From the IMG/VR virus record IMGVR_UViG_2541047857_000014: a DNA stretch of 64,000 bases. The stretch is one strand, 5' to 3'. Of the stretch, positions 20,591 to 52,092 are shown one piece after another. Under the pieces are notes generated by a model that had not been told where the DNA came from, ran no database searches, and was given only the letters and a program-made list of their open reading frames with translations. Each line of letters starts with the position of its first letter. The first letter of the stretch is position 1. Source of the stretch: a virus (taxonomy: Duplodnaviria; Heunggongvirae; Uroviricota; Caudoviricetes). The position numbers and the translations under genes were made by a program.

Positions 20591-21814
20591 ATGCGCAACA
20601 TTATCGAATTAGAACAGATATCGGAAGAACTAAAAAAACATGAACTATTGCAACCCCCATTCATTGCCGAGGGAAAACTAATTTCTGACTTTTCTAAGAG
20701 AGTCGAGTGCTATTTAGAATTAATTGACTCCATTAGAAATAAATATCCTGACAACGAGATAATTAAACAAGTAAAGATTCGCACAAAATCAATAATATAT
20801 TTATCTGATAAAATAATAGAAACTCTTAAGCTATTTTTAATAGGAAATGTTAAAGAAGCTTATAAAAAATTCGATTTGGCAATTACCAAGTCATCAATGC
20901 ATACTCATCTTTATAAGATGACTGTTCCTCTAACTAAATTATGCAACCCACACACCCCTTTATTTCGCGTAAGGAAAAGTGAGTGCATCCTAAAACAAAG
21001 AGAAGAATTATTTCATATACCATTTAAAAATAGACATTTAGTTAGCGCACAAAGATTTTCTGTATCCGGTCTTCCATGTTTATATCTTGGAACATCAATA
21101 TTTGTATGTTGGCAAGAAATGGGAAAACCTGACTTTGATAAACTTTACATATCTTCCTTCATATCCGATAAAGAAAATTCAAATATAAGAATTTTAGATC
21201 TTGGGTACAATTTAACATCTGCACTTCGTACAAAACCGGGAGATCTTTGGTATTCATTCGAACAAGGTTCAGATGATGATTACGATCTAAATAATGATAA
21301 TTTCATGGATCAAATTAATGATAAAATTTCAAAGTTGATTGCATGGCCTTTAGTCCTTGCATGTAACTATACAAAAGATAATGAAAACGCAAGTTTTAAT
21401 AAAGAATACATAATACCAAACCTATTAATGCAATGGATTAGTAGTGACAGAAACAAAAATATATCAGGGATATCGTATCGATCAACAAAGATATTAAACC
21501 AAAAAGATAGCGATATTGGGATTAATGTAATTATCCCCCCAAAAATAGAAAACATAGTTGAAACCAATGATACCCACTGTCCTGTTTTAAAAAAAATATT
21601 TAGAGTTACAAACCCTGTTTCCTGGACTGTGTTTAGTACACTAGAAGCCACCCCCTATCTATACAAAAATAATTTTAATTTTTCGACCTATAATCCCGCA
21701 AAAGGATGGATTGAAGACTTTGATGAATCCCTTGTTGAACATTATGAAAATACCACTTTTAGAAAAGTTGAACTCCTTATTCATCAAATGATGAAGTATG
21801 AATATTTAAAATAA
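20591..21814 (+). CDS. RES-domain protein (putative NAD-targeting toxin/effector), 407 aa
   Basis: Segment LFRVRK...AQRFSVSGLPCLYLGTSIFVCWQEMG fits the RES domain pattern (R-x-FNxxG-x-P-x-LYL-x-S...E); ATG 4 nt after int stop; strongly AT-rich. Confidence 0.55.
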   Translation: MRNIIELEQISEELKKHELLQPPFIAEGKLISDFSKRVECYLELIDSIRNKYPDNEIIKQVKIRTKSIIYLSDKIIETLKLFLIGNVKEAYKKFDLAITKSSMHTHLYKMTVPLTKLCNPHTPLFRVRKSECILKQREELFHIPFKNRHLVSAQRFSVSGLPCLYLGTSIFVCWQEMGKPDFDKLYISSFISDKENSNIRILDLGYNLTSALRTKPGDLWYSFEQGSDDDYDLNNDNFMDQINDKISKLIAWPLVLACNYTKDNENASFNKEYIIPNLLMQWISSDRNKNISGISYRSTKILNQKDSDIGINVIIPPKIENIVETNDTHCPVLKKIFRVTNPVSWTVFSTLEATPYLYKNNFNFSTYNPAKGWIEDFDESLVEHYENTTFRKVELLIHQMMKYEYLK

Positions 21815-22360: not shown

Positions 22361-22558
22361 ATGGCACTGGACAGTTATGCATCTCCGAATATTATTCCGG
22401 AGCTAAGACAACCGAATGCCGCAGCAGGTAAGATCACGCTAGGGGGGCTGGACAGAATGGCTGTTACGCCCAGTGTGAAGAAAAGAAGGCTAAGTATGGT
22501 AGAATTTCCATACGCACAGACCTTGTTATCCGACTATACAGCCTGGAAGGCACTATGA
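22361..22558 (+). CDS. small hypothetical protein (65 aa), translationally coupled to downstream nuclease-like gene
   Basis: Stop overlaps the ATG of the next gene (ATGA); weak RBS. Confidence 0.35.
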   Translation: MALDSYASPNIIPELRQPNAAAGKITLGGLDRMAVTPSVKKRRLSMVEFPYAQTLLSDYTAWKAL

Positions 22559-23343
22559 CAAATCTACAACTGGAAGAAAGATTTAGGGCGCTTGAGAAAG
22601 ATTACGATGCGCTCATTTCCACAAAATATACTGCGCAGAACGTTCTCACTCACACTATGGAAACCTATGTTGATTCTGGTAAATATAAAAACTGGATCGC
22701 CAGAGTGAAAAAGTTAATAGAGGACAGCTACGGAAAAGAGTCTGATTATTACAATGACTTCAATACTGTAAACAGCAGGTGGTCTTCTAATTACAATACA
22801 CTGATCAAAAGTTATAAACCGTTGTTTGATGCGGCGAGAGATGATCTTGCGCACTCTGCTGTCAGTACTAATACTCCTCAAGAAGGTTCGCCGCTGAGCC
22901 TCGTACTTAATATTCTTAACAGGTTTCCGACCTTTGTTCGCCAGTTAAAGAGGCGGTACAACGGCCGTGCGCCGCTTGAAGTTAATGATGAGTATGACGT
23001 ACAGGATTTGATTTATGCACTGCTGACGCTTCATTTTAATGATATTAGGGCGGAAGAGTATACCCCCAGCTTTGCGGGCGCGGCCTCAAGACAGGACTTT
23101 CTTTTGAAAAAAGAGAAAATTGTGATAGAGGTGAAGAAAACCCGTGAATCTCTGGGAGCGGGTAAAGTTGGTGGAGAGTTGCTTATTGATATGGCGCGCT
23201 ACCGCGCTCACCAAGACTGCGATACGTTGATCTTGTTTGTATATGACCCGGATTGCTACATAAATAATCCTTTGGGCGTGAAAACCGATCTGGAATCTAA
23301 AGACGCGGAAGGAAAAGTGAAGGTTGTTATTGCGCAGTTCTGA
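22555..23343 (+). CDS. PD-(D/E)xK nuclease-like protein (putative), 262 aa
   Basis: C-terminal half has D...(Q)DFLL...IVIEVKK spacing typical of restriction-endonuclease-fold motifs II/III; GGAAGG RBS. Confidence 0.5.
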   Translation: MTNLQLEERFRALEKDYDALISTKYTAQNVLTHTMETYVDSGKYKNWIARVKKLIEDSYGKESDYYNDFNTVNSRWSSNYNTLIKSYKPLFDAARDDLAHSAVSTNTPQEGSPLSLVLNILNRFPTFVRQLKRRYNGRAPLEVNDEYDVQDLIYALLTLHFNDIRAEEYTPSFAGAASRQDFLLKKEKIVIEVKKTRESLGAGKVGGELLIDMARYRAHQDCDTLILFVYDPDCYINNPLGVKTDLESKDAEGKVKVVIAQF

Positions 23344-23430: not shown

Positions 23431-23724
23431 TCATCTTTGCCAGGTCAAATCAAAATCTACGTGAAAATCCGCAGGCTTAAGCTCGCAACTGCCACCACGC
23501 CCAATTAACGACGTTATGTTTACAACGTTTGAACCTGTTGAGATGGCAAGTTGAGTGTCATCTGTAAACGTGATGATTAGCATTTCAGTCTGATGAACCT
23601 GTACTCCAGTTTTCTGAAAACCAATCTGGACAGATTTCACCGTTTTCCCAACCATTTCACGGGCTTGATTGATAGAGTAATTAGCTTCAACTTGTAGGTC
23701 ATTCCTGAACTTGGGTAGTGTCAT
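23431..23724 (-). CDS. hypothetical protein (97 aa) downstream of GIY-YIG gene
   Basis: ORF co-oriented with and downstream of the GIY-YIG gene. Confidence 0.4.
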   Translation of the reverse strand: MTLPKFRNDLQVEANYSINQAREMVGKTVKSVQIGFQKTGVQVHQTEMLIITFTDDTQLAISTGSNVVNITSLIGRGGSCELKPADFHVDFDLTWQR

Positions 23725-23934
23725 TTTACATCCTCTTTAGTGAAGTTTTCGCTATTTAAATCAGCAGCATTCCTTTTAAATCACTGGCATGTCAGCAGTG
23801 GATAGTCTGAGTGTAACGTCCAGTGAGGGGAATAAATATTGGTCAGACTTTGCACAAAAGAGCCAACTATCGCGGGCTCTCTCTCATCATGTGCGAAAAT
23901 TGACCACAATATGAAATCCAGTTCCATTCCGAAA

Positions 23935-24759
<825 letters not shown>

Positions 24760-24859
24760 TCAATTGACAACTTATAATCCCTACTAGTTAGCATTATGAT
24801 TTCCAGAGTGAGGAATATAAAAATCTCTGTTTCTGGCACATAACAGCCCTTAAGATCGT

Positions 24860-24915
24860 AGCTCGCCATCATGGGGTGTCGGGGGGCGGAGGTTCAAATC
24901 CTCTCGTGCCGACCA
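24860..24915 (+). other. tRNA-like 3-prime fragment (T-arm plus acceptor end), possible old attachment-site scar
   Basis: ggaggttcaaatcctctcgtgccgacca has a T-loop-like GGTTCAAATCC and ends in CCA; no complete cloverleaf upstream; followed by a terminator. Confidence 0.35.
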
Positions 24916-24930
24916 AAAATCCCTTAAGAA

Positions 24931-24956
24931 CCAGCCTATTATGGCTGGTTTTTTTA
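24931..24956 (+). terminator. rho-independent terminator
   Basis: ccagcc tattat ggctgg followed by TTTTTTT. Confidence 0.55.
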
Positions 24957-25156
24957 TGATTGTTTTTTATGCGGAGAAATACCGGGGAATAATTGGGGTA
25001 AAACACCTTTAGGCTATTCACTTAGCCTACCACCATCAAAATCTTTCCGAATGTATCCATCTCTTTTTTCTTATGCAGCTAAAACGAAGTCTTGATACTG
25101 TTTATTTACACAGATAAGAATAATACTGTCTACAAACGCAGTACAAAAGAAGTGTT

Positions 25157-25335
25157 ATGCGTATTGAGATCTCCATAGCCAAAGACAAAATGACCAAATG
25201 CCAAACGGCGCTGTGGACGCGTTAAAGGAAGAATTAACCCAACACATTGGCAAGCGTTATGACGATGTGGAGATGATCGTAAAAGCCACCAGCAACGATA
25301 GTTTTTCAGTTAGACATACTGCAGATAAAGATTGA
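25157..25335 (+). pseudogene. DinI-like gene interrupted by a frameshift
   Basis: Frame 1 from ATG about 25157 gives [14 protein letters not shown] then stops; the -1 frame continues [37 protein letters not shown] (DinI-like); break lies in an A-run. Confidence 0.5.
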
Positions 25336-25759
25336 GCTAAAACTTTCGTTCAGGAAACTCTGAATGATACCTGAGAGTCTACTGAAGAGTTGTTTGTTCA
25401 CTAGTTAGCACGTAGGAAATCATTCAATACTCGCACTATCGGAAGTTCACCAGCCAGTCGTAGCACGTCCTTGCAAACGACGTGCCTACGGTTTCAATCA
25501 CCTCTCACCATCAATTCTATCAATAATAATTAAACAGCGCCTAGACAAAATAAATAACAACAAGTCAACAACCTCGACAGGATGCCGATGGGATGATGAA
25601 GAGATAAGAAAGAATAACCAGTAAAGCCCTAAAACGTCAGCGTTCAGACGCGTTTTTTACTTAATCGGTAACAAATACGTTGTATCATAGCAAAATAAAA
25701 TGATTGTTCTAAATCAGATTAACTCCTCACTTTTGTACAATGTCGCTTACAGGTATACC

Positions 25760-27649
25760 ATGAAATCCGAGACGCTAACTGTCCAACAACTTTTTCAAGA
25801 CCGCCGACAATACTGTGTTCCATTCTATCAACGTGCCTATGTATGGACTCAGCAAGACCAGTGGTCAGCTCTACTGGAGGATATCCTAGAGAAAGTACAA
25901 TCCCGGCTCTCGGGTACAAAACCAACTCCCCATTTCCTTGGTGCGGTTGTACTGGAACCTCAATCAAAAAAAGGATTATTAGGTGTAGATTCCATACATA
26001 TTATTGATGGTCAGCAACGATTGACCACTCTTCAATATGTTCTGGCATCCATCCGATTAGCATTACGTGCTACGGATCTTTCCAGCTTAGAGGCTCTCAT
26101 TTCGCCTTGCCTGAAAAACTCAAACGAAGACACAATGCGAAATAAAGAAGTAGAACGCTTCAAACTGTGGCCAACTTTTCGGGATCAAACTCATTTTATT
26201 CAAAGTTTTAATGTTGAAAATATTGACGATCTCCGGGACGTATTCTCTGATAGTTTCACGCAGCATGGTACGTTGCGTAAGCATTTTAATCACCCGCCAT
26301 CACTAGAAGCATTATGTTTTTTTACTGAAGCCTTTATAAAATGGATTAAAATAGAAAACCACTCACCACAAGAAAATGCTGTAGCTCTAATTGAGGCTGT
26401 CTTAACAGATCTGAAACTGGTAAGCATATTTCTCGAAGCTGAAGATGATGCCCAAATAATTTTTGAAACATTAAATGGGCGAGGGGCGGAACTTCATGCT
26501 ACGGATCTTATTCGCAACTATATCTTTATGTGCGCTGAGCATGAAAATATTAATGCTATTGAATTATATGAAAATGAGTGGAAGAGCTTTGAAGATAAAT
26601 ACTGGTCGGAAAAACAACGCCGTGGACGTATTAATAAACCACGCATGGAGTGGCTAGTACATGCGACATTGCAATCAGAAAGGCAACGTGAAATTGATCT
26701 GTCTCGCCTTTACAATGAGTATCGTGATTATGTAAGTAAGGACTTGTCTTCACAACGAGCAGATCTGCAAGTAAAGCGCCTCAAACAATATGCATCACAA
26801 TATAAAGAATTGGTTGATGGTTTTGGCACAACCCCCATCTCACACTTTGGATATCGCATCGCAGACTATGATGTGACGACACTTTATCCGCTTGCTTTGT
26901 TCATTTCGATAGCTAACATCGCTGATGATGAGAAAGCAGCCATGTATAATGATCTTGTCTCCTACGTAGTACGAAGAGCCGTATGTGGCCTGACGCCAAA
27001 GAATTACAACAATGTATTTATGAATGTATTGCGGCACTTGGCTAAAACGGAAATTTCCAGTGTTGAGTTACGTAATATCCTCAATAACTTAAATGGCGAA
27101 GCCTCACGTTGGCCTGGTGACTCAGAATTTCTCAACGCTTGCATCAATGCTCCACTTTATCCTGGCAGGCTCGACGCACCGAAAATGCGCTCAATGTTAA
27201 CGGAACTTGAAAGAGAACTTTGTCGCCAAGTAAAGACAGAAAAGCCTGATGTTCCAAATCTTTCTAATCTCGATATCGATCATCTTATGCCTCAAAGTTG
27301 GTATTCCTGTTGGCCTCTCGAAAATGGTCGTATGGTGACAAATTCAGATGCTACGGTATTGAACCAAATTGTTCTGTCTGGAACCGATCTTACCCCTGAA
27401 CAGCTACTGGTAAGGAAACGGCAACAAGCGATATCTACTTTGGGAAATCTAACTTTGCTTAACCTTAGCGTAAACCGTTCTGTTCAGAATGCTGTATTTC
27501 TGAAAAAACGTGATGCTCTCATCGTCCACACCAATCTACGACTGAACATTCCACTTATAGTTAAGGATAAATGGGATGAGGATGAAATCCTGGAGCGGGG
27601 TAAAAAGTTGGGGGAAATTGCATTGAAAGTATGGCCAAAACACGATTAA
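25760..27649 (+). CDS. fused DUF262-DUF1524 protein, GmrSD-like type IV (modification-dependent) restriction endonuclease
   Basis: N-terminal PFYQRAYVW and IIDGQQRLTTL motifs (DUF262) plus C-terminal DIDHLMPQSW His-Me-type motif (DUF1524); ORF from 25700, probable ATG at 25760. Confidence 0.8.
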   Translation: MKSETLTVQQLFQDRRQYCVPFYQRAYVWTQQDQWSALLEDILEKVQSRLSGTKPTPHFLGAVVLEPQSKKGLLGVDSIHIIDGQQRLTTLQYVLASIRLALRATDLSSLEALISPCLKNSNEDTMRNKEVERFKLWPTFRDQTHFIQSFNVENIDDLRDVFSDSFTQHGTLRKHFNHPPSLEALCFFTEAFIKWIKIENHSPQENAVALIEAVLTDLKLVSIFLEAEDDAQIIFETLNGRGAELHATDLIRNYIFMCAEHENINAIELYENEWKSFEDKYWSEKQRRGRINKPRMEWLVHATLQSERQREIDLSRLYNEYRDYVSKDLSSQRADLQVKRLKQYASQYKELVDGFGTTPISHFGYRIADYDVTTLYPLALFISIANIADDEKAAMYNDLVSYVVRRAVCGLTPKNYNNVFMNVLRHLAKTEISSVELRNILNNLNGEASRWPGDSEFLNACINAPLYPGRLDAPKMRSMLTELERELCRQVKTEKPDVPNLSNLDIDHLMPQSWYSCWPLENGRMVTNSDATVLNQIVLSGTDLTPEQLLVRKRQQAISTLGNLTLLNLSVNRSVQNAVFLKKRDALIVHTNLRLNIPLIVKDKWDEDEILERGKKLGEIALKVWPKHD

Positions 27650-27662
27650 TGCAATTAATAAA

Positions 27663-27692
27663 ATGATTATAGTGGCCTTACATTAGTAAGGC
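27663..27692 (+). terminator. hairpin downstream of GmrSD-like gene
   Basis: agtggccttac atta gtaaggccgctact inverted repeat directly after the stop codon. Confidence 0.4.
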
Positions 27693-29379
27693 CGCTACTC
27701 ACTATTAAATACTTTAATTTGCATCAAGAACAGCAGTGTCAGCCCTAGGTCTCGGACTTTGTACCGCTTATCTTGTCTTCAAAAATCAGCTCGCATCCTG
27801 CACAGTTCAGCGCATTACGTTGTAGATCTGTGTTCTGGTCATTTGTTGACACACGTACATAGCCAATAAGCATGGTAGATCTCCCTGACAAAAGCAGGAA
27901 TGATGCCATTTGCTCGTTATTTCTGCATTTTCATAAACGTTGGTTTGGGAGAAGCGGCTACACTGCATGTGGGCAACCGTGATCAACAAATCTCTGATAT
28001 ACCTTCCACGAGGTTGCCGGGTGGCAATGGAAATTTTGTGATTCGTCAACCTGACGGGCTACTCGTACAGATTGATCCGACAAATAAAAGCCCTCATTTG
28101 GGGATTGATGTTATTACTGACTATGATGATGGCATCGGAGTTGATAAAAGGTCTGCTGTTGCGTCAGCAACATTGCCATCTGTAGGTACTTTTAATGTGG
28201 TGCGAGTTATCCTCCCGGTAACAACAAGAGGTTCTGGTGCTAAATCCAGCAATACAGTAGGTTTATGAGCGACCACTGTTAGCACTACTGTCGGTGTCAG
28301 TGGTGATAAGTCCATTTCGGGTAAAGTCGCCATTCCACTCGACGATACCTTTCCATGCAATACTAGCTTCACAGATATCGTGATTGCAGGATAATAGTTA
28401 AAGCAGTATTAAATTCAGCCGTTATTACAAGTTTGGATGGGCAAGTAATCGTTCAAAACTATGAGGGTGAAGGACCGGTTTCTGTTTCCGTTATAGAAAA
28501 TTATATTGACGTATGTGTGGATATTCTGGGTTATCCCCCACTGGGTGCAGAAATTAGAGCTAACGCTGGTGGTCGGCTCTTATGGTTTGATTACCTACCC
28601 TCATGAAAAGATGTGCAAGTGTTGCCCGCTGAAATCAAATATAACACTGAAACGTGAGAAGTAAATACAAACACCAAACCGGGTCATTGGCCTGGCAATG
28701 CTACCACTAGTGGTCTGATAAGCCCAGAACAGAAATAAGATGATTAGTAACGGGATAACCTTAATGCGGTAGAACTTAGCGCTGCATCCGGTGCGCCAGA
28801 AACACAATGTCAGACACCTCCTGAAGCTGAAACCGCATGAAACGCGGCGCTGTAGCTGTAATTATTGGCGGCACCGCGTCTGATGCAGGCAGCAAAGACC
28901 TAAGCCAGCGCTTTTCTGCCTTCATTAGCCGCGGTGAGGCCTGCAAATACCAGTGAAGCACCGGGATTGATGCGATCGGAACATCAATAAGTGTCGGCCG
29001 TTCTACTTCTGCCGCACCGGATGTAGCGACATGTTCTAGCGCGGCCTGGGTCTCCCACCTCGCACTATACCACTTCACTTCCTGGCTTATCGGAGGACCA
29101 GTAGTAGCTTTGTCGGGCTAATCATGCGTTGCTGTGTTGTTTTTTACTTCTGAAATTTCGGAGTTTTATTCGATTTCAGCGGGCTACACCGGCACATCTT
29201 CCCAAGAATTTGGGGACTCAGTACAACCTAGAGCACAACCACTGTTATGGACACTTGGTTTATCTACTGAAGGATAAGCAAGAAAATGCTCATATGTTGC
29301 TATGGTTATATTAATAGTAGAATCATAAAGCCTACCCGCATCATCATAGTCTGAAACGGTTACATCCAGATAATAACTA

Positions 29380-30157
29380 TTAACTCCGCGACAATTGAAT
29401 ATTGATTTCACTATTACCGTCCACTGACGAACGATGAAAATGCGATATCTCGTGGAAAGGTATCAATGGGTGGTTCGTCCACTTTAAACACCATCGTCTG
29501 GTCACTACCGATGCCGACGGAAGAGCAAATCCTGGTTGCTTCAGACCCTGTTGTATTAGTAAATTTAGCACCATAGCCTCTCGTTGATCCCGAGGTGATA
29601 GCTCGCAGCACCTTATTAGTAAATACAGTTGGCTCTTTTGCTGTCGGCACATAACGCTTTTAAGCACCGGCGAGCGCATAAGCCTAACCACTCATTACAT
29701 TCACCCGCACAGCACCCATTTTATTTGCAGTAAACACCTGTGCCAGTAGCGGGTATTGTTCACGAGACACAGCCGCTCCATTGCCATCCGGAACCGCTCA
29801 GAACGATGTGTCTGAAAGTCGTGGAACCGGCTCACCAACAGGTAATGCAGAGCCTTCTCCCAAACCAAGGTTTTCGAGAGCCGTTTTCACCGTGCCGTCC
29901 GATTTGATATCGCTAAACGGATTCTTGCGGCTTAACAGCAGCGCACGAAGCGCGGTAAGCAGCTGGTCGTGCCGCGCCTTCTCCAGACTGGCACCGGATG
30001 CCTCCACCACGCTGCAGAGTTCTTCCTGCAACATGTCAAAGTAGTCATCATCCAGATCGGTGGCAGGCGTGCCTGTCTGGGGGTTACCACGGGTAAAACC
30101 GTTCTTACCCGCGCCGAACTTATCCTTCTGCGCGGTTTTCGTGTCTATACGATGCAT
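29380..30157 (-). pseudogene. tail fiber gene, N-terminal domain intact (29798-30157) but body disrupted
   Basis: [47 protein letters not shown] is the conserved tail-fiber N-terminus of Mu-like enterobacterial prophages; the ORF stops after 119 aa and continuation lies in other frames. Confidence 0.45.
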
Positions 30158-30160
30158 GGA

Positions 30161-30745
30161 TTACTCCGGATATTTAAAAATTACGTAGGTATGCGAAGGG
30201 CAGAGTTTGTTAAGCACACATTCGACGACGGTGTCGCCCCAGATACGCAGCGCGGAATCACAGGGATCGCCACATGTCATCCAGGTGCTGTTGGTGGCGG
30301 CTGGCATGTTGACCTGCCAGTAATACCGCCATTCCGGCGCATTCACCGCGTCAGTACAGGCCGATGAGCAGGTGAACGTGCTTTTGTCGTATCGCGTGAT
30401 GGTGGCGTCTGGTCTGCCCAGGGCAGCAAGCTGTGCAAGGTAAAAATCCTCATTGATGCCGCCCGCCAGGTTAACCTTCGCATCCAGTCGTTGCTGACGC
30501 TGGCGAAGGGTCTGTGTTCCTGCGGGAATACATTCATCCGGCAGGCCGCACAGACGCTCCCAGCGATTTATCAGTTCGGTGGTGGTGCGCGGATCCAGCT
30601 CCCGCATCAGGGCATCCGCACGCTGATGAACGCGGGTTAATGACTGTGCCGCACCGGCAATCGCCGGATCGCTGGCTGACCACGCCGGACCGGGCGGCAG
30701 CAGTGCCGACAACAGACGGATGTAATCATCGTTTGTCACGCCCAT
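30161..30745 (-). CDS. tail protein, DUF2313 (Mu gp48 / YmfQ-like)
   Basis: 194-aa ORF between baseplate J-like gene and tail fiber, as in Mu-type baseplate clusters. Confidence 0.65.
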
Positions 30746-31794
30746 GAAATCGTCCCCAGAACCGCCAGTTCATTTTTTGCAATGGAGATATTTTCCGCCG
30801 GTGCAAGCAATTGATGGCTGTATTCCCCGTTCGCACCGGAAATCGCTTCACTGATACGCGACACCTTCAGTTCTCCCTGCGGATAACCATCACGCAGCAG
30901 GAACGAACGCAACTCCGCGGTGATGGCAGCCCGTATTTCCGGTGTATCCGGCGTCACACGGATATGAAAATCCACCGTATGCGCCACCGGCCTGAACACA
31001 TACAAATCAGAGCCTGCCACCGGGGCCAGTGGCCCGATATGTTGTCTTGCCGCCGTTTCCGTTGATTCTTCCGGAATGGGATTAATCAGGTCACTGCTGG
31101 CAATCATCACACCGACAGTCCCCGTTCCCATCCAGTGACGGTATGCCCATGCGCGGGTAATGCCGGGCAATTCTTTAGCCCAGACAACATAGTCCCCGTC
31201 AGCCCCGCCCTGAGGCGTCCAGTAATACCGCTCAATGACGCGGGCGCGCCACGTTTCCAGCTCTTCAGTATCAAATCCACCTGTCAGAGTGTCTGCCACG
31301 CCGGAAGACGGCAGACCATTAACCGGCGTGACCAGGATTAATGACGTACCGTCGTCAGCGTTACCGACCGCGCCTGCACTTGAGCAGGCGATCGGCACGC
31401 GCAGGACACCACCGGCGCTGGTTGCATCGGCAGTTGCCGTGTACTGAATCAGGTCATCGCGCTGAATAACACTCCCGGCGGTCACCTTCAGGCCATCGCT
31501 GACGCCTTCCCAGCGCATATACCCGCTGGCAGTCGTGGCCCCCTTGCGCGGACACCGTTTCATCGCAGCATGTCGCGCCAGCCAGGACTCATCGCACAGG
31601 TCAGGCAGCATGTTCATTGCCAGATAATCGATGTACCCGTAAACCGTATGCAGCGCCGCCGCATACACCTTTGCCCGCACGTCTTCATCCATGCGCCGGA
31701 GCGTGTCGCTGACGTCCAGCCTGGCGAATAAATCGTTACGGAGCATACTGATATTTTCTGCCAGCGTCGGGCGCTGAAATTCACTGTCCGCCAT
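30736..31794 (-). CDS. baseplate J-like protein (Mu gp47-like)
   Basis: 352-aa ORF in baseplate cluster; size and order consistent. Confidence 0.7.
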
Positions 31795-32209
31795 GCGTTA
31801 TCGCACTCCACAGATCATCTAAAGAAATCATTACCGGTCCGTCACGACGCCAGAGAGTGATACTGTTACCCAGTTCATTAATCCCGGTGCGGAGGATATC
31901 CAGATCAATACGGGACACCACGCCGTCATCAATCATCCATTGCAGGCATTCGCGGATATACCCCCTTACCGTCTGCACCAGCTGATTGGTCAGTTTGCTG
32001 CGCTGAAGCAGCCACAGTCGGGAGCCGTAACGGTCATTCTGTACCGCAGGCCAGGTATCCCCCCACCATCCCATCGGGACGTCGGCGTTGTCATCAGGCT
32101 CCGCCCGCCGCCAGGTAAACAGGGAAATCACCACGGCGCGGGTCAGCGGATCCAGCGGTGCGCTGGCGCAGGTGCGTTTACCGTTCACCGTCAGCCACAG
32201 TTCCATCAT
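31781..32209 (-). CDS. baseplate protein (Mu gp46-like)
   Basis: 142-aa ORF between spike and J-like genes. Confidence 0.6.
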   Translation of the reverse strand: MMELWLTVNGKRTCASAPLDPLTRAVVISLFTWRRAEPDDNADVPMGWWGDTWPAVQNDRYGSRLWLLQRSKLTNQLVQTVRGYIRECLQWMIDDGVVSRIDLDILRTGINELGNSITLWRRDGPVMISLDDLWSAITHGGQ

Positions 32210-32754
32210 GCCTCCATCGCTTTATCAGGTTTGTCGGTGTTACTGCCCTGACCGTTCTCTCTGTGACGATGCCCGTTATAGGCAAGCCGCATCGCTGACA
32301 TGGTGGTGCCGCTGGAGTCGCACAGGTCTTTCACCTGTCCTGTCACTTCCAGGTCCATTTCAAAACGTGCTTCAGGTGCATTGCGAAACGTGATCGTTTT
32401 ACCTGCACCGTCCACCACGATCCCCTCCCGGGTCAGCGTCACAGACTGCCCCTGATCGTCATAGACCGCCACCTCACCCGTCTGCAGCCCTTTCAGGCGG
32501 TAGCGCCGGTCCGACACCGTAACAACCACCGCATGAGAACGGTCACCATCCGGAAACAACACCACCGCTTCCGCACCGCTGTTTGCCCTTGCGGTAAAAC
32601 CGTAGGGTTCAAGATGTTCAACCCCGGCTTTGGGTTCACCGGCAATCAGGGACACATCCACGGTCTGACATTTCGTGGCGGCACTGATGCTTTTCACCAC
32701 TGCCCGCCCAATCAGGCCGAGGAGTTGTCGCTGCATGGCTTCAATCGTACTCAT
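32206..32754 (-). CDS. baseplate spike/assembly protein (gpV-like, Mu gp45-like)
   Basis: 182-aa ORF with beta-rich content similar to gpV-type spikes. Confidence 0.65.
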   Translation of the reverse strand: MSTIEAMQRQLLGLIGRAVVKSISAATKCQTVDVSLIAGEPKAGVEHLEPYGFTARANSGAEAVVLFPDGDRSHAVVVTVSDRRYRLKGLQTGEVAVYDDQGQSVTLTREGIVVDGAGKTITFRNAPEARFEMDLEVTGQVKDLCDSSGTTMSAMRLAYNGHRHRENGQGSNTDKPDKAMEA

Positions 32755-33833
32755 CAGAACGGGTCCTCCTGTACTCTGGCTTTTTTCTTTTTCCGCGCGC
32801 CGGGGGCTTCGGGTTCAGGCAGATAAGCATCAGGTGGGCCGACACGGATTTCCGTCAGGGTGCCGTTCTGGTCCTGAGTAAACGTGACTTCCGAGACAAG
32901 CAGTTCGGTATTGTCGAAACCACAGACCGGATCGAAGACAATCACCCGCTGGTTGGGCTGCCACAGCGTACCGTTACCCTGTCGCCAGCCCTGCACCACA
33001 TAGGTGGTTTCATCCGTCCGCGCCGCCCGTTGTCGGGCTTCAAAGTCAGCACGCGCAATACAGCCTGCCCCCGTAGCCTGCCCTGTCTGCCTGATATACA
33101 TCGGACGGTAACGGGCAATAAATGCGTCCTCTGTGCGGGCCCGCAGCGCGCTGGTGGTGGCCTCACCGAAATCATCGTCGTTTCCAGCACGCTGCCCCGC
33201 CACCTGGTAAACAGAAAACCGCTCCCGGATACTCTTCTCCGTATCGCAGGAAAGGATGTTTTCCCCGAGTACCAGCGCAGTATGTGCCCGCGTTGAGCCA
33301 ATACCGCCAATCACCAGCCTGCCGTGTGGGTCGTCGTAAGCCAGTGCCTGCTGCTGACCGAGTATTTTGTTGATTACCTCAATCACCGTTTCACCGTGAT
33401 CGGGCTGGACGTCAGGAATAACACCCGACGGCGCACCGTTGTTCACCACCTCAATGCCGAAAGGCGCAGCAAGCGCCTGCGCAATCTGTACCAGCGATCG
33501 TCCGTTAAACTGTGTCGGTTCGGCTGCACAGTCAATCAGGTCAGCGGTCAGACTGCGTCCGGCAATACCGGTGCTGACCGAACGGGCATCGTAACGAACG
33601 GGCGTCGCCTCCACCCAGCCGGTGATCACCAGCTCATCACCAATCAGCACCTCCACTTTTGAACCGTTTTTAATGCGCGGCTGAAGCGTGGTGATACCCT
33701 CATCACCCGGCCACTGGCGGGTGATCTCCACACTGAAATCCCGCGCCAGCCGTTCAATACCGGCACCGATGCGCACCGATGTCCAGCCATTCCACTCCCG
33801 GCCATTTACCCGTAGCGTGACGTTATCGTTCAT
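32754..33833 (-). CDS. baseplate hub / late control D-like protein (Mu gp44-like)
   Basis: 359-aa ORF downstream of DNA circulation gene. Confidence 0.65.
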   Translation of the reverse strand: MNDNVTLRVNGREWNGWTSVRIGAGIERLARDFSVEITRQWPGDEGITTLQPRIKNGSKVEVLIGDELVITGWVEATPVRYDARSVSTGIAGRSLTADLIDCAAEPTQFNGRSLVQIAQALAAPFGIEVVNNGAPSGVIPDVQPDHGETVIEVINKILGQQQALAYDDPHGRLVIGGIGSTRAHTALVLGENILSCDTEKSIRERFSVYQVAGQRAGNDDDFGEATTSALRARTEDAFIARYRPMYIRQTGQATGAGCIARADFEARQRAARTDETTYVVQGWRQGNGTLWQPNQRVIVFDPVCGFDNTELLVSEVTFTQDQNGTLTEIRVGPPDAYLPEPEAPGARKKKKARVQEDPF

Positions 33834-35200
33834 TGCACTGGCACCTTCAGAGGGATCACCGGCACAAAGCCGGGATGCGTAATGGCATTACGCCGGATAA
33901 TGTCCGCGTCACGCGCCGCGTTATCAAACCAGGTCGCCGCCAGCACCAGCGCGGGTAAAACCTCATCCGGTGTGCGCTGAATGATCCGTGCAGACTGTTC
34001 AAGGCGCGTGTTGATATCCGCATTCAGATCTGCTTTCACCCGGCGCAGCGCCAGAAACAGCACATCACTGGTTGTACGGGACAACTCCTTATCAATTGCC
34101 GTATTCAGTGTGTCGCGAATGTCGGTCAGTTCTTCCCACGTTGGCAGGTCAACCGTGTTTTTCACCGCCGGTGCATTGTTCAGTGCCGGATGCGTGACAG
34201 AAGGCCAGCCGGTGCTCTGCGCGGGTGTTGTTGACTGCCCCACTGTGGCATTCTGCATCACCGCGGAAGTTGTGGGCGCAGGCAATCGTGTGACGGCATA
34301 CGCCGCTTCGCTGATTGCGGTCGTACGAAGGGTGCTGGCAACCACGTTACGCTGCTGCGTCGCCGTGGCGGTGGTTTTACTGTCCGTTTTCCAGACGCCG
34401 CGCGGTTGCAGATCGCTGCCGAGGCTGACACCGGAAAGCGTTTTGATCATGGTGACCAGGTCGCTGGCGTTACCATAAAGGCGTTTCCCGGTACGCCACA
34501 TTTTCTGCACCTGCTCAACGAAATTTTTGCCTGACGATGGCGGCGGCAGAAGTACCGAGATATCCCCCTGCAACAGCCTGGCGGCATCCGATACGGCAGA
34601 ATCCACCACTTTCATCGCATCAGAAACATACCCAAGCATTGTGCTGGCATTACCGACGACGTCGTTCTGCACAAAATCTGCCACGCCATCGATACTGAAA
34701 CCACTGAAGCTGTCACTGATGCAGTCATCCAGTGCAGAACAGGATGACATCAGCGTCTGCGCCGTCGCCGCACCTGAAGTGGGGTAAGAGAGTTCTCCCG
34801 CTTCGACAAACTTCAGGTCAAAGCGGACAATACGCCCTTCACTCTTCGATGTGCTGACCCGAACTTCCCCGTCAACACAGACTTTCAGCTCACCGTAAGT
34901 CGGATGGACAAGCGTGCCGGGACCGGGTTTATTCAGCGCGTCAATCAGGCGATCGCGCTGGTCAAAGCAGTCATCTCCCACCACATAAGCTGTGATGGAC
35001 GGGCGGAAAGTGATTTTCCCCAGGTCTTCGGTATAGGGTTTGTCGCGGTTCGGGTATTCGTGCGTTTCCACACGACGACCGGTTCCCGCACTTTCTTCTT
35101 CAACCTTAAACGGCACACCGCGAAATGACGCGTCCTGAAGTCTGTCTTTCCACGTCATATAAACTCCGTACATAAAAAATCCCACCGGAGTGGGACTCAT
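33830..35200 (-). CDS. DNA circulation protein N-like tail protein (Mu gp43-like)
   Basis: 456-aa ORF immediately downstream of tape measure; N-terminus WKDRLQDASFRGVPFKVEE...THEYP typical of this family. Confidence 0.7.
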   Translation of the reverse strand: MSPTPVGFFMYGVYMTWKDRLQDASFRGVPFKVEEESAGTGRRVETHEYPNRDKPYTEDLGKITFRPSITAYVVGDDCFDQRDRLIDALNKPGPGTLVHPTYGELKVCVDGEVRVSTSKSEGRIVRFDLKFVEAGELSYPTSGAATAQTLMSSCSALDDCISDSFSGFSIDGVADFVQNDVVGNASTMLGYVSDAMKVVDSAVSDAARLLQGDISVLLPPPSSGKNFVEQVQKMWRTGKRLYGNASDLVTMIKTLSGVSLGSDLQPRGVWKTDSKTTATATQQRNVVASTLRTTAISEAAYAVTRLPAPTTSAVMQNATVGQSTTPAQSTGWPSVTHPALNNAPAVKNTVDLPTWEELTDIRDTLNTAIDKELSRTTSDVLFLALRRVKADLNADINTRLEQSARIIQRTPDEVLPALVLAATWFDNAARDADIIRRNAITHPGFVPVIPLKVPVQ

Positions 35201-51096: not shown

Positions 51097-52092
51097 TTAC
51101 ACCAGTACGCCAATTGCCAGCGCACGATCGATAAAACGAAATATCAGCTCCAGCTGGGAGCCATACATCTCTTCAAATGCCACGGTATCCGCATGCAGCT
51201 CGTCGTGATGCTTTCTGCACAAAGGCAACACAAAAAGGTCATGCGCTTTTGTACCCATTCCACCCTGTCCGTGGCCTATCAGGTGGTGGGGATCATCAGC
51301 GGGCTTTCCACAACATGCACACGACTGTGTCTTAACCCAGCGCGTGTACTTTTCATTAACCCAGCGGCGACGTTTTGGGCGTAACATAAAAGACTCCGGC
51401 GACTCCGGATCCACTTTCAGCGCCAGCACCTTTTTCGCTTTATCCTGGATGATGCTGGTGGCAGGAACCGAAGGCACAAGGTCACTTTCCCGGGTGACAG
51501 ACGGCACAACAGGCTTCGGTAATCTCAGTGCCTTACGGGCTGCACTTTCCGGTAAGGCATCCGCCAGATCATTACGAACCAGCCACCAGCACAGTTCCGG
51601 CATTGTCACAACGTGACTGTCATCAAAACCGAGATCCCGACGCACAACAGACAACACCCAGCGGGCACAGTTATCCGTTGCCATTGATTCCAGCCGTTCC
51701 GTGAACTGATCGCGAAGCAGGTTATCGCAGTGCCAGCACAGACGGATTGCGCCCGGCGCGTGTCGCATTGTGGTCATGTTCTCGCTGTGCCATCCGGAAT
51801 GAGGCCACTGACAGCCCTTTTCACGAAGTAACCAGCTTTCAAGACATTCCACACCCCCCGCACGACGAATAACTGCCTCATTGCGGAACACGGCCCGAAT
51901 GGCAGGATCATCCGCCAGCGGTTGTGATGCCGCCGGAACGGCACCACTGGCAAAAGATGAATAACGTTCCGGCTCAGGCTCCAGCAGGACACGCCCCTGC
52001 ATAAACAGGGGCATCAGCTCTGAACCGGGCCTGAACAATACGATCCCCATACGCGGGGCAATTTCAGGGGTCAGTAGTGCTCTCACGGTCAC
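51097..52092 (-). CDS. DUF968-like phage protein
   Basis: 331-aa ORF with C-terminal CACCGKPADDPHHLIGHGQGGMGTKAHDLFVLPLCRKHHDELH motif, in nin-like region. Confidence 0.5.
   Translation of the reverse strand: MTVRALLTPEIAPRMGIVLFRPGSELMPLFMQGRVLLEPEPERYSSFASGAVPAASQPLADDPAIRAVFRNEAVIRRAGGVECLESWLLREKGCQWPHSGWHSENMTTMRHAPGAIRLCWHCDNLLRDQFTERLESMATDNCARWVLSVVRRDLGFDDSHVVTMPELCWWLVRNDLADALPESAARKALRLPKPVVPSVTRESDLVPSVPATSIIQDKAKKVLALKVDPESPESFMLRPKRRRWVNEKYTRWVKTQSCACCGKPADDPHHLIGHGQGGMGTKAHDLFVLPLCRKHHDELHADTVAFEEMYGSQLELIFRFIDRALAIGVLV

Follow-up and report, generated by a model that had tools for sequence, protein, structure and literature searches.

Positions 27959-29832 of the deposited sequence are an in-silico chimera that mixes, base by base, both orientations of an invertible tail-fiber cassette of the Pin type. 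The window, by which we mean the whole stretch of 64,000 nucleotides that we analyzed, is from the draft genome of Escherichia coli HVH 217 (4-1022806; assembly GCA_000459375.1, scaffold KE701021.1 in the public NCBI record). We fetched this locus of KE701021.1, and it was identical to the window over 24798-35157. The element behind it is intact, and it is an orphan member of a well-known class, the tail-fiber inversion switches of the Pin type. We are highly confident in the account as a whole, which is that the locus is an intact e14-type P segment, that both of its orientations were present in the culture, and that the assembler combined the two paths one base at a time.

A base-by-base chimera

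The window corresponds to 2810406-2874405 of E. coli S88 (NC_011742.1) except for 3 SNPs and another 660 positions, all of which are within 27959-29832. The SNPs, at 51439, 51646, and 61726, are the only differences across the 62 kb outside of the mosaic, so HVH 217 is very close to S88. E. coli ATCC 11775 shares this clean segment with S88. Its flanks (23600-27958 and 29833-34800) are essentially identical to the window's, with a single difference, at 26113, while across 27959-29832 its identity to the window is just ~65%, with equal length, a flat substitution spectrum, and a transition/transversion ratio of 0.44.

We aligned the window to the segment from S88 and ATCC 11775 and also to the reverse complement of that segment. 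The window matched the unflipped template only at 745 positions, the flipped template only at 660 positions, and both templates at 596 positions, and it never matched neither. There are 0 "neither" cases among the 1385 informative sites, and the alignment is gapless, without indels. At all 660 of the 660 positions that differ from S88, the window has the base of the reverse-complemented segment at the same position; the probability that random substitutions would hit the flipped-template base every time is about 10^-315. The two templates (the segment and its own reverse complement) are only 30% alike, as for random sequences. The gapless relation holds if the segment is mirrored about a+b = 57808, which puts the axis at 28904, and this is the exact midpoint between two inverted crossover sites (Table 1).

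Which template was chosen varies without any apparent pattern. The choice is about 50:50 in each block of 100 informative sites, a runs test gave z = -1.0, neighboring informative sites came from the same template in 51% of cases, and we saw no base preference. The mixture can also be recognized without a reference: when the deposited segment is compared in register with its own reverse complement, the identity is 62.5%. By the same measure, control stretches from the window averaged 25% (maximum 31%), and the clean segment from S88 had 28.5%.

The mosaic was not found in any other genome that we searched, either among complete E. coli genomes or among GTDB representatives. In a megablast search, the region had matches in thousands of E. 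coli genomes, with just ~61% of its length aligning. None of 5,426 complete E. coli genomes had over 66% identity to 27959-29832, and a scan of the GTDB representative genomes for a 50-nt string from the mosaic gave no match. The 119-aa product that is encoded at 29798-30157 on the minus strand is on record in exactly one assembly, GCA_000459375.1. As the exact sequence stands in a public NCBI assembly, we rejected a planted or synthetic origin. We rejected a divergent natural allele, as the identity in complete E. coli genomes is nowhere above 66% and both the substitution spectrum and the templating contradict it. We also rejected a plain inversion relative to ATCC 11775, because the identity is ~65% in both orientations.

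The preliminary description of this DNA had reported that the frame of the fiber gene breaks after 119 amino acids and that only short ORFs follow, on both strands. As deposited, this is correct: the minus-strand ORF from 30157 stops at 29798, and in 27900-29800 no ORF on either strand is longer than 122 amino acids. Such broken frames and short ORFs are what genuine decay would leave, if the fiber gene, the assembly genes, and the alternative cassette had been mutated or frameshifted so that the prophage could not make a fiber. The neighboring invertase gene is truly truncated and a nearby DinI gene is a pseudogene, which would also fit. Nevertheless, we consider decay to be very improbable, as each of the 660 differences is the flipped-orientation base, with no indels and a transition/transversion ratio of 0.44. 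Furthermore, the flanks are 100% identical to S88, so 35% divergence that is confined to 1.9 kb cannot be mutational.

Receptor-binding tail fibers are the usual substrate of targeted hypermutation by systems of the diversity-generating retroelement type, so the fiber gene might have been hypermutated. But the spectrum of changes is uniform over all 12 classes instead of being adenine-specific, the changes extend over both assembly genes as well as the fiber, and each change matches the reverse-complement template. There is no reverse transcriptase among the annotated neighbors either. Hypermutation is vanishingly improbable.

One aspect of the data counts against a chimera. The mosaic begins 17 bp inside the left core and stops 34 bp short of the right core, and there are 14 unflipped picks in a row before the right crossover versus only 3 after the left one. 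The chimera account gives no reason for this asymmetry. The unequal ends (29833-29866 versus 27942-27958) may hint at which software step was involved.

The invertible segment and its genes

The segment is bounded by two inverted crossover sites, whose half-sites are conserved around an AA/TT core, which bears out the suggestion in the preliminary description to look for inverted repeats. A search with the crossover-site pattern found two matches, TTCTCCCAAACCAACGTTT at 27935-27953 (minus strand) and TTCTCCCAAACCAAGGTTT at 29855-29873 (plus strand), versus 0.1 expected by chance. A general repeat search of 27600-30200 returned a single, unrelated pair of 18 nt and missed the crossover repeat (15 bp, perfect), which the direct pattern search found. 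No further crossover sites were found in the 64-kb window, even with 3 mismatches allowed. We therefore rejected a multi-site, shufflon-like system (of the type of Min of p15B), since the window has just two sites. The inverted repeats that have been quoted for the P segment of e14, TTGGTTTGGGAGAAG and TTGGTTTGGGAGAAGG (PMC12529663), are those in the window.

Table 1. Features of the locus, in window coordinates
Feature	Position	Strand	Remarks
GmrSD/DUF262 type IV restriction-like gene	25760-27649	+	occupies the place of the rest of pin
Pin-type serine invertase stub	27751-27873	-	41 of 184 codons; identical to PinE 1-41
Alternative fiber C-terminal cassette	27903-28394	+	without its own N-terminal constant part
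Left 26-bp crossover site, TTCTCCCAAACC-AA-CGTTTATGAAAA	27928-27953	-	identical to the pinE-proximal site of e14
Invertible segment, P-segment homolog, 1925 bp	27942-29866		between the crossover cores; mirror axis 28904
Mosaic zone	27959-29832		660 flipped and 693 unflipped picks, 0 neither
Second tail-fiber assembly gene, 147 aa in S88	28397-28840	+	cognate to the alternative fiber end; scrambled in the window
tfaE-like tail-fiber assembly gene, 200 aa in S88	28812-29414	-	scrambled in the window
Tail-fiber gene, 247 aa in S88 and ATCC 11775	29414-30157	-	codons 1-101 constant, outside the segment
Right 26-bp crossover site, TTCTCCCAAACC-AA-GGTTTTCGAGAG	29855-29880	+	identical to the stfP-side site of e14
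ymfQ, Mu gp48-like baseplate gene	30161-30745	-	last intact gene upstream of the fiber

At these coordinates, both S88 and ATCC 11775 have an intact 247-aa tail protein, tfaE (200 aa), and a tail-fiber assembly gene (147 aa), along with a 163-aa "hypothetical protein" and a recombinase stub. In this orientation, the fiber, whose frame is broken at 29798 in the window, ends with a phage tail collar domain. Inversion fuses the alternative cassette to the constant part and gives a second 247-aa fiber: if 27942-29866 is flipped in the clean sequence, then residues 1-101 are shared with the first fiber, the 146-residue C-terminus is different, and the other assembly gene sits downstream of the fiber. 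The alternative C-terminus has a weak, Gp53-like match that is below the Pfam gathering cutoff; both of the assembly genes belong to Caudo_TAP. On the de-mixed (S88) sequence, then, there is a constant N-terminus with two alternative C-termini, and each C-terminus has its cognate assembly gene. Upstream, a Mu-like tail and baseplate module on the minus strand (homologs of gp45, gp46, gp47, and gp48) ends with ymfQ.

These results change how the region should be read. The preliminary description took it for a degraded fiber in a prophage that probably cannot make a functional one, and it named a single continuous fiber ORF after error correction as the sign that this was mistaken. Removing the assembly error restores just such an ORF, of 247 amino acids, in both orientations. 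The alternative that had been offered, a scrambled host-range cassette, was half right, as this is a tail-fiber host-range cassette, but the scrambling is computational and not biological. The statement that there is no assembly gene was wrong as well: none is intact in the sequence as deposited, yet two tfa genes are there once the sequence is de-mixed. The anomaly is also narrower than the 27693-30157 that was flagged: it covers 27959-29832, inside the 1925-bp segment.

The preliminary description also stated that there is no invertase, and this was wrong, because the start of one is still there. The product of the stub, MLIGYVRVSTNDQNTDLQRNALNCAGCELIFEDKISGTKSE, comprises 41 residues that are identical to the beginning of PinE; it has a match to Pfam Resolvase, and it matches residues 1-41 of Gin (PDB 4M6F and 3UJ3; E = 5e-19). 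There is not an intact serine invertase gene beside the segment, as codons 1-41 of 184 are followed by the GmrSD/DUF262 gene.

That gene replaces pin from codon 42 onward, and its position is that of mcrA beside pinE in e14. It is also part of a small, defense-like island between the two prophages, along with a PD-(D/E)XK nuclease, a GIY-YIG LEM-3-like gene, and a DinI pseudogene (22555-23343, 23935-24708, and 25157-25374).

The most similar known system is the P segment of e14 and its invertase PinE. The gene order in E. coli K-12 (ymfQ-stfP-tfaP / tfaE-stfE-pinE-mcrA) is the same as here, and both of the 26-bp crossover sites and the 41 residues of the stub are identical. At the DNA level, ymfQ, the constant part of the fiber, and the 5' end of pin are ~95% identical to e14, and tfaE is ~89% identical. 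In both elements, a type IV restriction gene lies just past pin (mcrA in e14, GmrSD/DUF262 here). On the other hand, the segment is 1925 bp instead of 1797 bp, one of the cassettes (with the collar-domain fiber end) is unlike e14's, pin is cut to 41 codons, and the host prophage has its full length and includes head, tail, and lysis genes, while e14 is a remnant.

The architecture is also that of the G segment of Mu (Gin) and the C segment of P1 (Cin). In those systems, too, the constant N-terminus (Sc) is encoded beyond the segment, the segment itself contains alternative Sv-U and Sv'-U' pairs that point in opposite directions, and the enzyme is a serine recombinase; the stub's match to Gin and the Mu-like baseplate genes gp45-gp48 add to the resemblance. 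The G segment of Mu is ~3 kb, so the segment here, at ~1.9 kb, is shorter. The fibers (247 aa) are much shorter than those of Mu or P1, and there is no intact invertase in cis.

Origin of the mixture

Both orientations of the segment occur in complete genomes. The unflipped orientation is present in about 111 complete E. coli genomes, including S88, UTI89, and ATCC 11775. The flipped orientation is present in 23 complete genomes on a strict count, which required the full-length junction at 99.8% identity or above, or in 43 on a looser count; these include IHE3034, APEC O1, and PMV-1. Flipped or unflipped, these genomes all share the same truncated-invertase junction.

The mosaic itself requires both orientations. 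We propose that the real DNA is an intact 1925-bp P segment of the e14 type with two inverted 26-bp crossover sites of the Pin/Gin family. Each flip joins the constant 101-residue N-terminus of the fiber to one or the other C-terminus, each with its own assembly gene, and so switches the host range. With molecules of both orientations in the HVH 217 culture, the assembler would have faced two paths of equal length between the same flanks. Reads that lie wholly inside such a segment carry no information about orientation; only junction reads and read pairs have any. The assembler would then have picked each base independently, which yields 1.9 kb of nonsense with broken frames.

The crossover repeat is perfect over only 15 bp, so a second path in the assembly graph requires that both types of junction were in the DNA preparation. 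From the consensus alone, we infer a mixed population, which would imply that the segment was flipping in the culture that was sequenced. Segments of the e14 type coexist in both orientations in ordinary clonal cultures (PMC4272514), and in wild-type K-12, ~30% of the e14 P segments were inverted (PMC12529663).

The two orientations might instead have come from two copies of the locus in the genome, or two strains might have been present in a culture that was mixed or contaminated, without any inversion during growth. Closely related, ST95-like genomes have both orientations, so two such strains could supply both. However, the locus is found in just one place in S88, there are only the 3 differences from S88 across 62 kb and no other mosaic patches, and clonal cultures are known to contain both orientations of such segments (PMC4272514). 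We think that two copies or two strains are unlikely, and that inversion during growth probably produced the mixture.

As for the software, the Broad's HVH assemblies were presumably made with ALLPATHS-LG. This assembler stores parallel paths or edges as ambiguities, which are flattened when a FASTA file is written. In the literature on ALLPATHS and efasta, and on assembly at phase-variable inversions, we found no description of a per-base merge. Short-read assemblies usually fail at this crossover; here, the contig is unbroken, with the two paths merged at each base into a sequence that is continuous yet fictitious.

In protein clustering, the 119-aa product groups with 84 proteins from E. 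coli and Salmonella assemblies, and most of these are "partial" N-termini of StfP of 109-122 amino acids. It seems from this that short-read contigs often end at this crossover site or close to it.

Our results are a warning about database quality, as a public draft genome holds 1.9 kb of fictitious sequence. ORFs that derive from the mosaic have entered nr, RefSeq, and UniRef (EQU92418.1, EQU92419.1, and WP_148722435.1). Other clusters of apparent pseudogenes that lie between short inverted repeats can be screened for this artifact by their in-register identity to their own reverse complement (62.5% here versus a background of ~25%). The biology is already known: this is a textbook host-range switch of the Pin type, and the "degradation" is not real. 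What the chimera adds is indirect evidence that both orientations were in the culture despite the destruction of the local invertase, which points to control across prophages.

The source of the invertase

Because the invertase in cis was destroyed (41 codons are left), inversion needs an enzyme that is encoded elsewhere, and flipping is presumably driven by such an invertase. There is a precedent: in experiments, PinQ, which is encoded in a different prophage, inverted the P segment of e14 in trans (PMC12529663). In that system, the same inverted repeats (TTGGTTTGGGAGAAG) are flipped from a different prophage; here, with the cis gene destroyed, a trans enzyme would be obligatory.

We found no invertase in the neighboring P2-like prophage. 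To look for a second gene elsewhere, we used queries that combined an anchor from the locus with either the missing part of pinE or pinQ from K-12, and we counted the matching places. With the rest of pinE, there was no second place in S88, MS7163, or ATCC 11775. With pinQ, there was a second chromosomal place in S88 and in MS7163 (this is a count of places only). These two are complete genomes that are identical to the window over 1-22000, so the closest relatives probably have a gene of the PinQ/PinR type. Judging from sequence similarity, the pinQ-like sequence in S88 and MS7163 is a candidate for the trans invertase.

In three of the flipped genomes (PMV-1, GN06489, and GN06758), at the sensitivity of blastn, neither a pinE-like nor a pinQ-like gene was seen elsewhere on the chromosome. 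The flipped orientation is thus not proof of a trans invertase that is currently active. More broadly, a second pinE-like gene was present in 7 of 10 flipped genomes and in about 15 of 46 unflipped genomes. With three exceptions, and with strains that are related to each other, this is suggestive, no more, of an association between the flipped orientation and a second pinE-like gene.

In the Gin, Hin, and Cin systems, a Fis-dependent enhancer lies in the 5' part of the invertase gene. In 27748-27940, we found one strict and one loose match to the Fis-like pattern G-N13-C, which is a weak consensus, centered 144.5 and 95.5 bp from the left core and both inside the stub. The two matches hint, weakly, that the enhancer could be preserved.

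The locus might be an orphan switch that the host has retained: a recombinase of the PinQ/PinR type would drive it in trans, the stub would supply the enhancer, the segment would flip frequently enough in ordinary growth of HVH 217 that both orientations reached the assembly, and the host would perhaps exploit the switch. We offer this tentatively, and would put it at somewhat short of an even chance. In K-12, the chimeric fiber StfE2 was shown to provide defense against phage T2 (PMC12529663).

The P2-like prophage at 1-21930 adjoins ssrA; a search of the window with ARAGORN gave no tRNA or tmRNA. ATCC 11775 lacks this prophage, which is identical in S88, MS7163, and N53. Besides a gene of the AIPR family (561-2261), the prophage has two large hypothetical genes as cargo (11127-12536 and 20591-21814), and its replication endonuclease (13444-15884) is annotated as frameshifted in S88.
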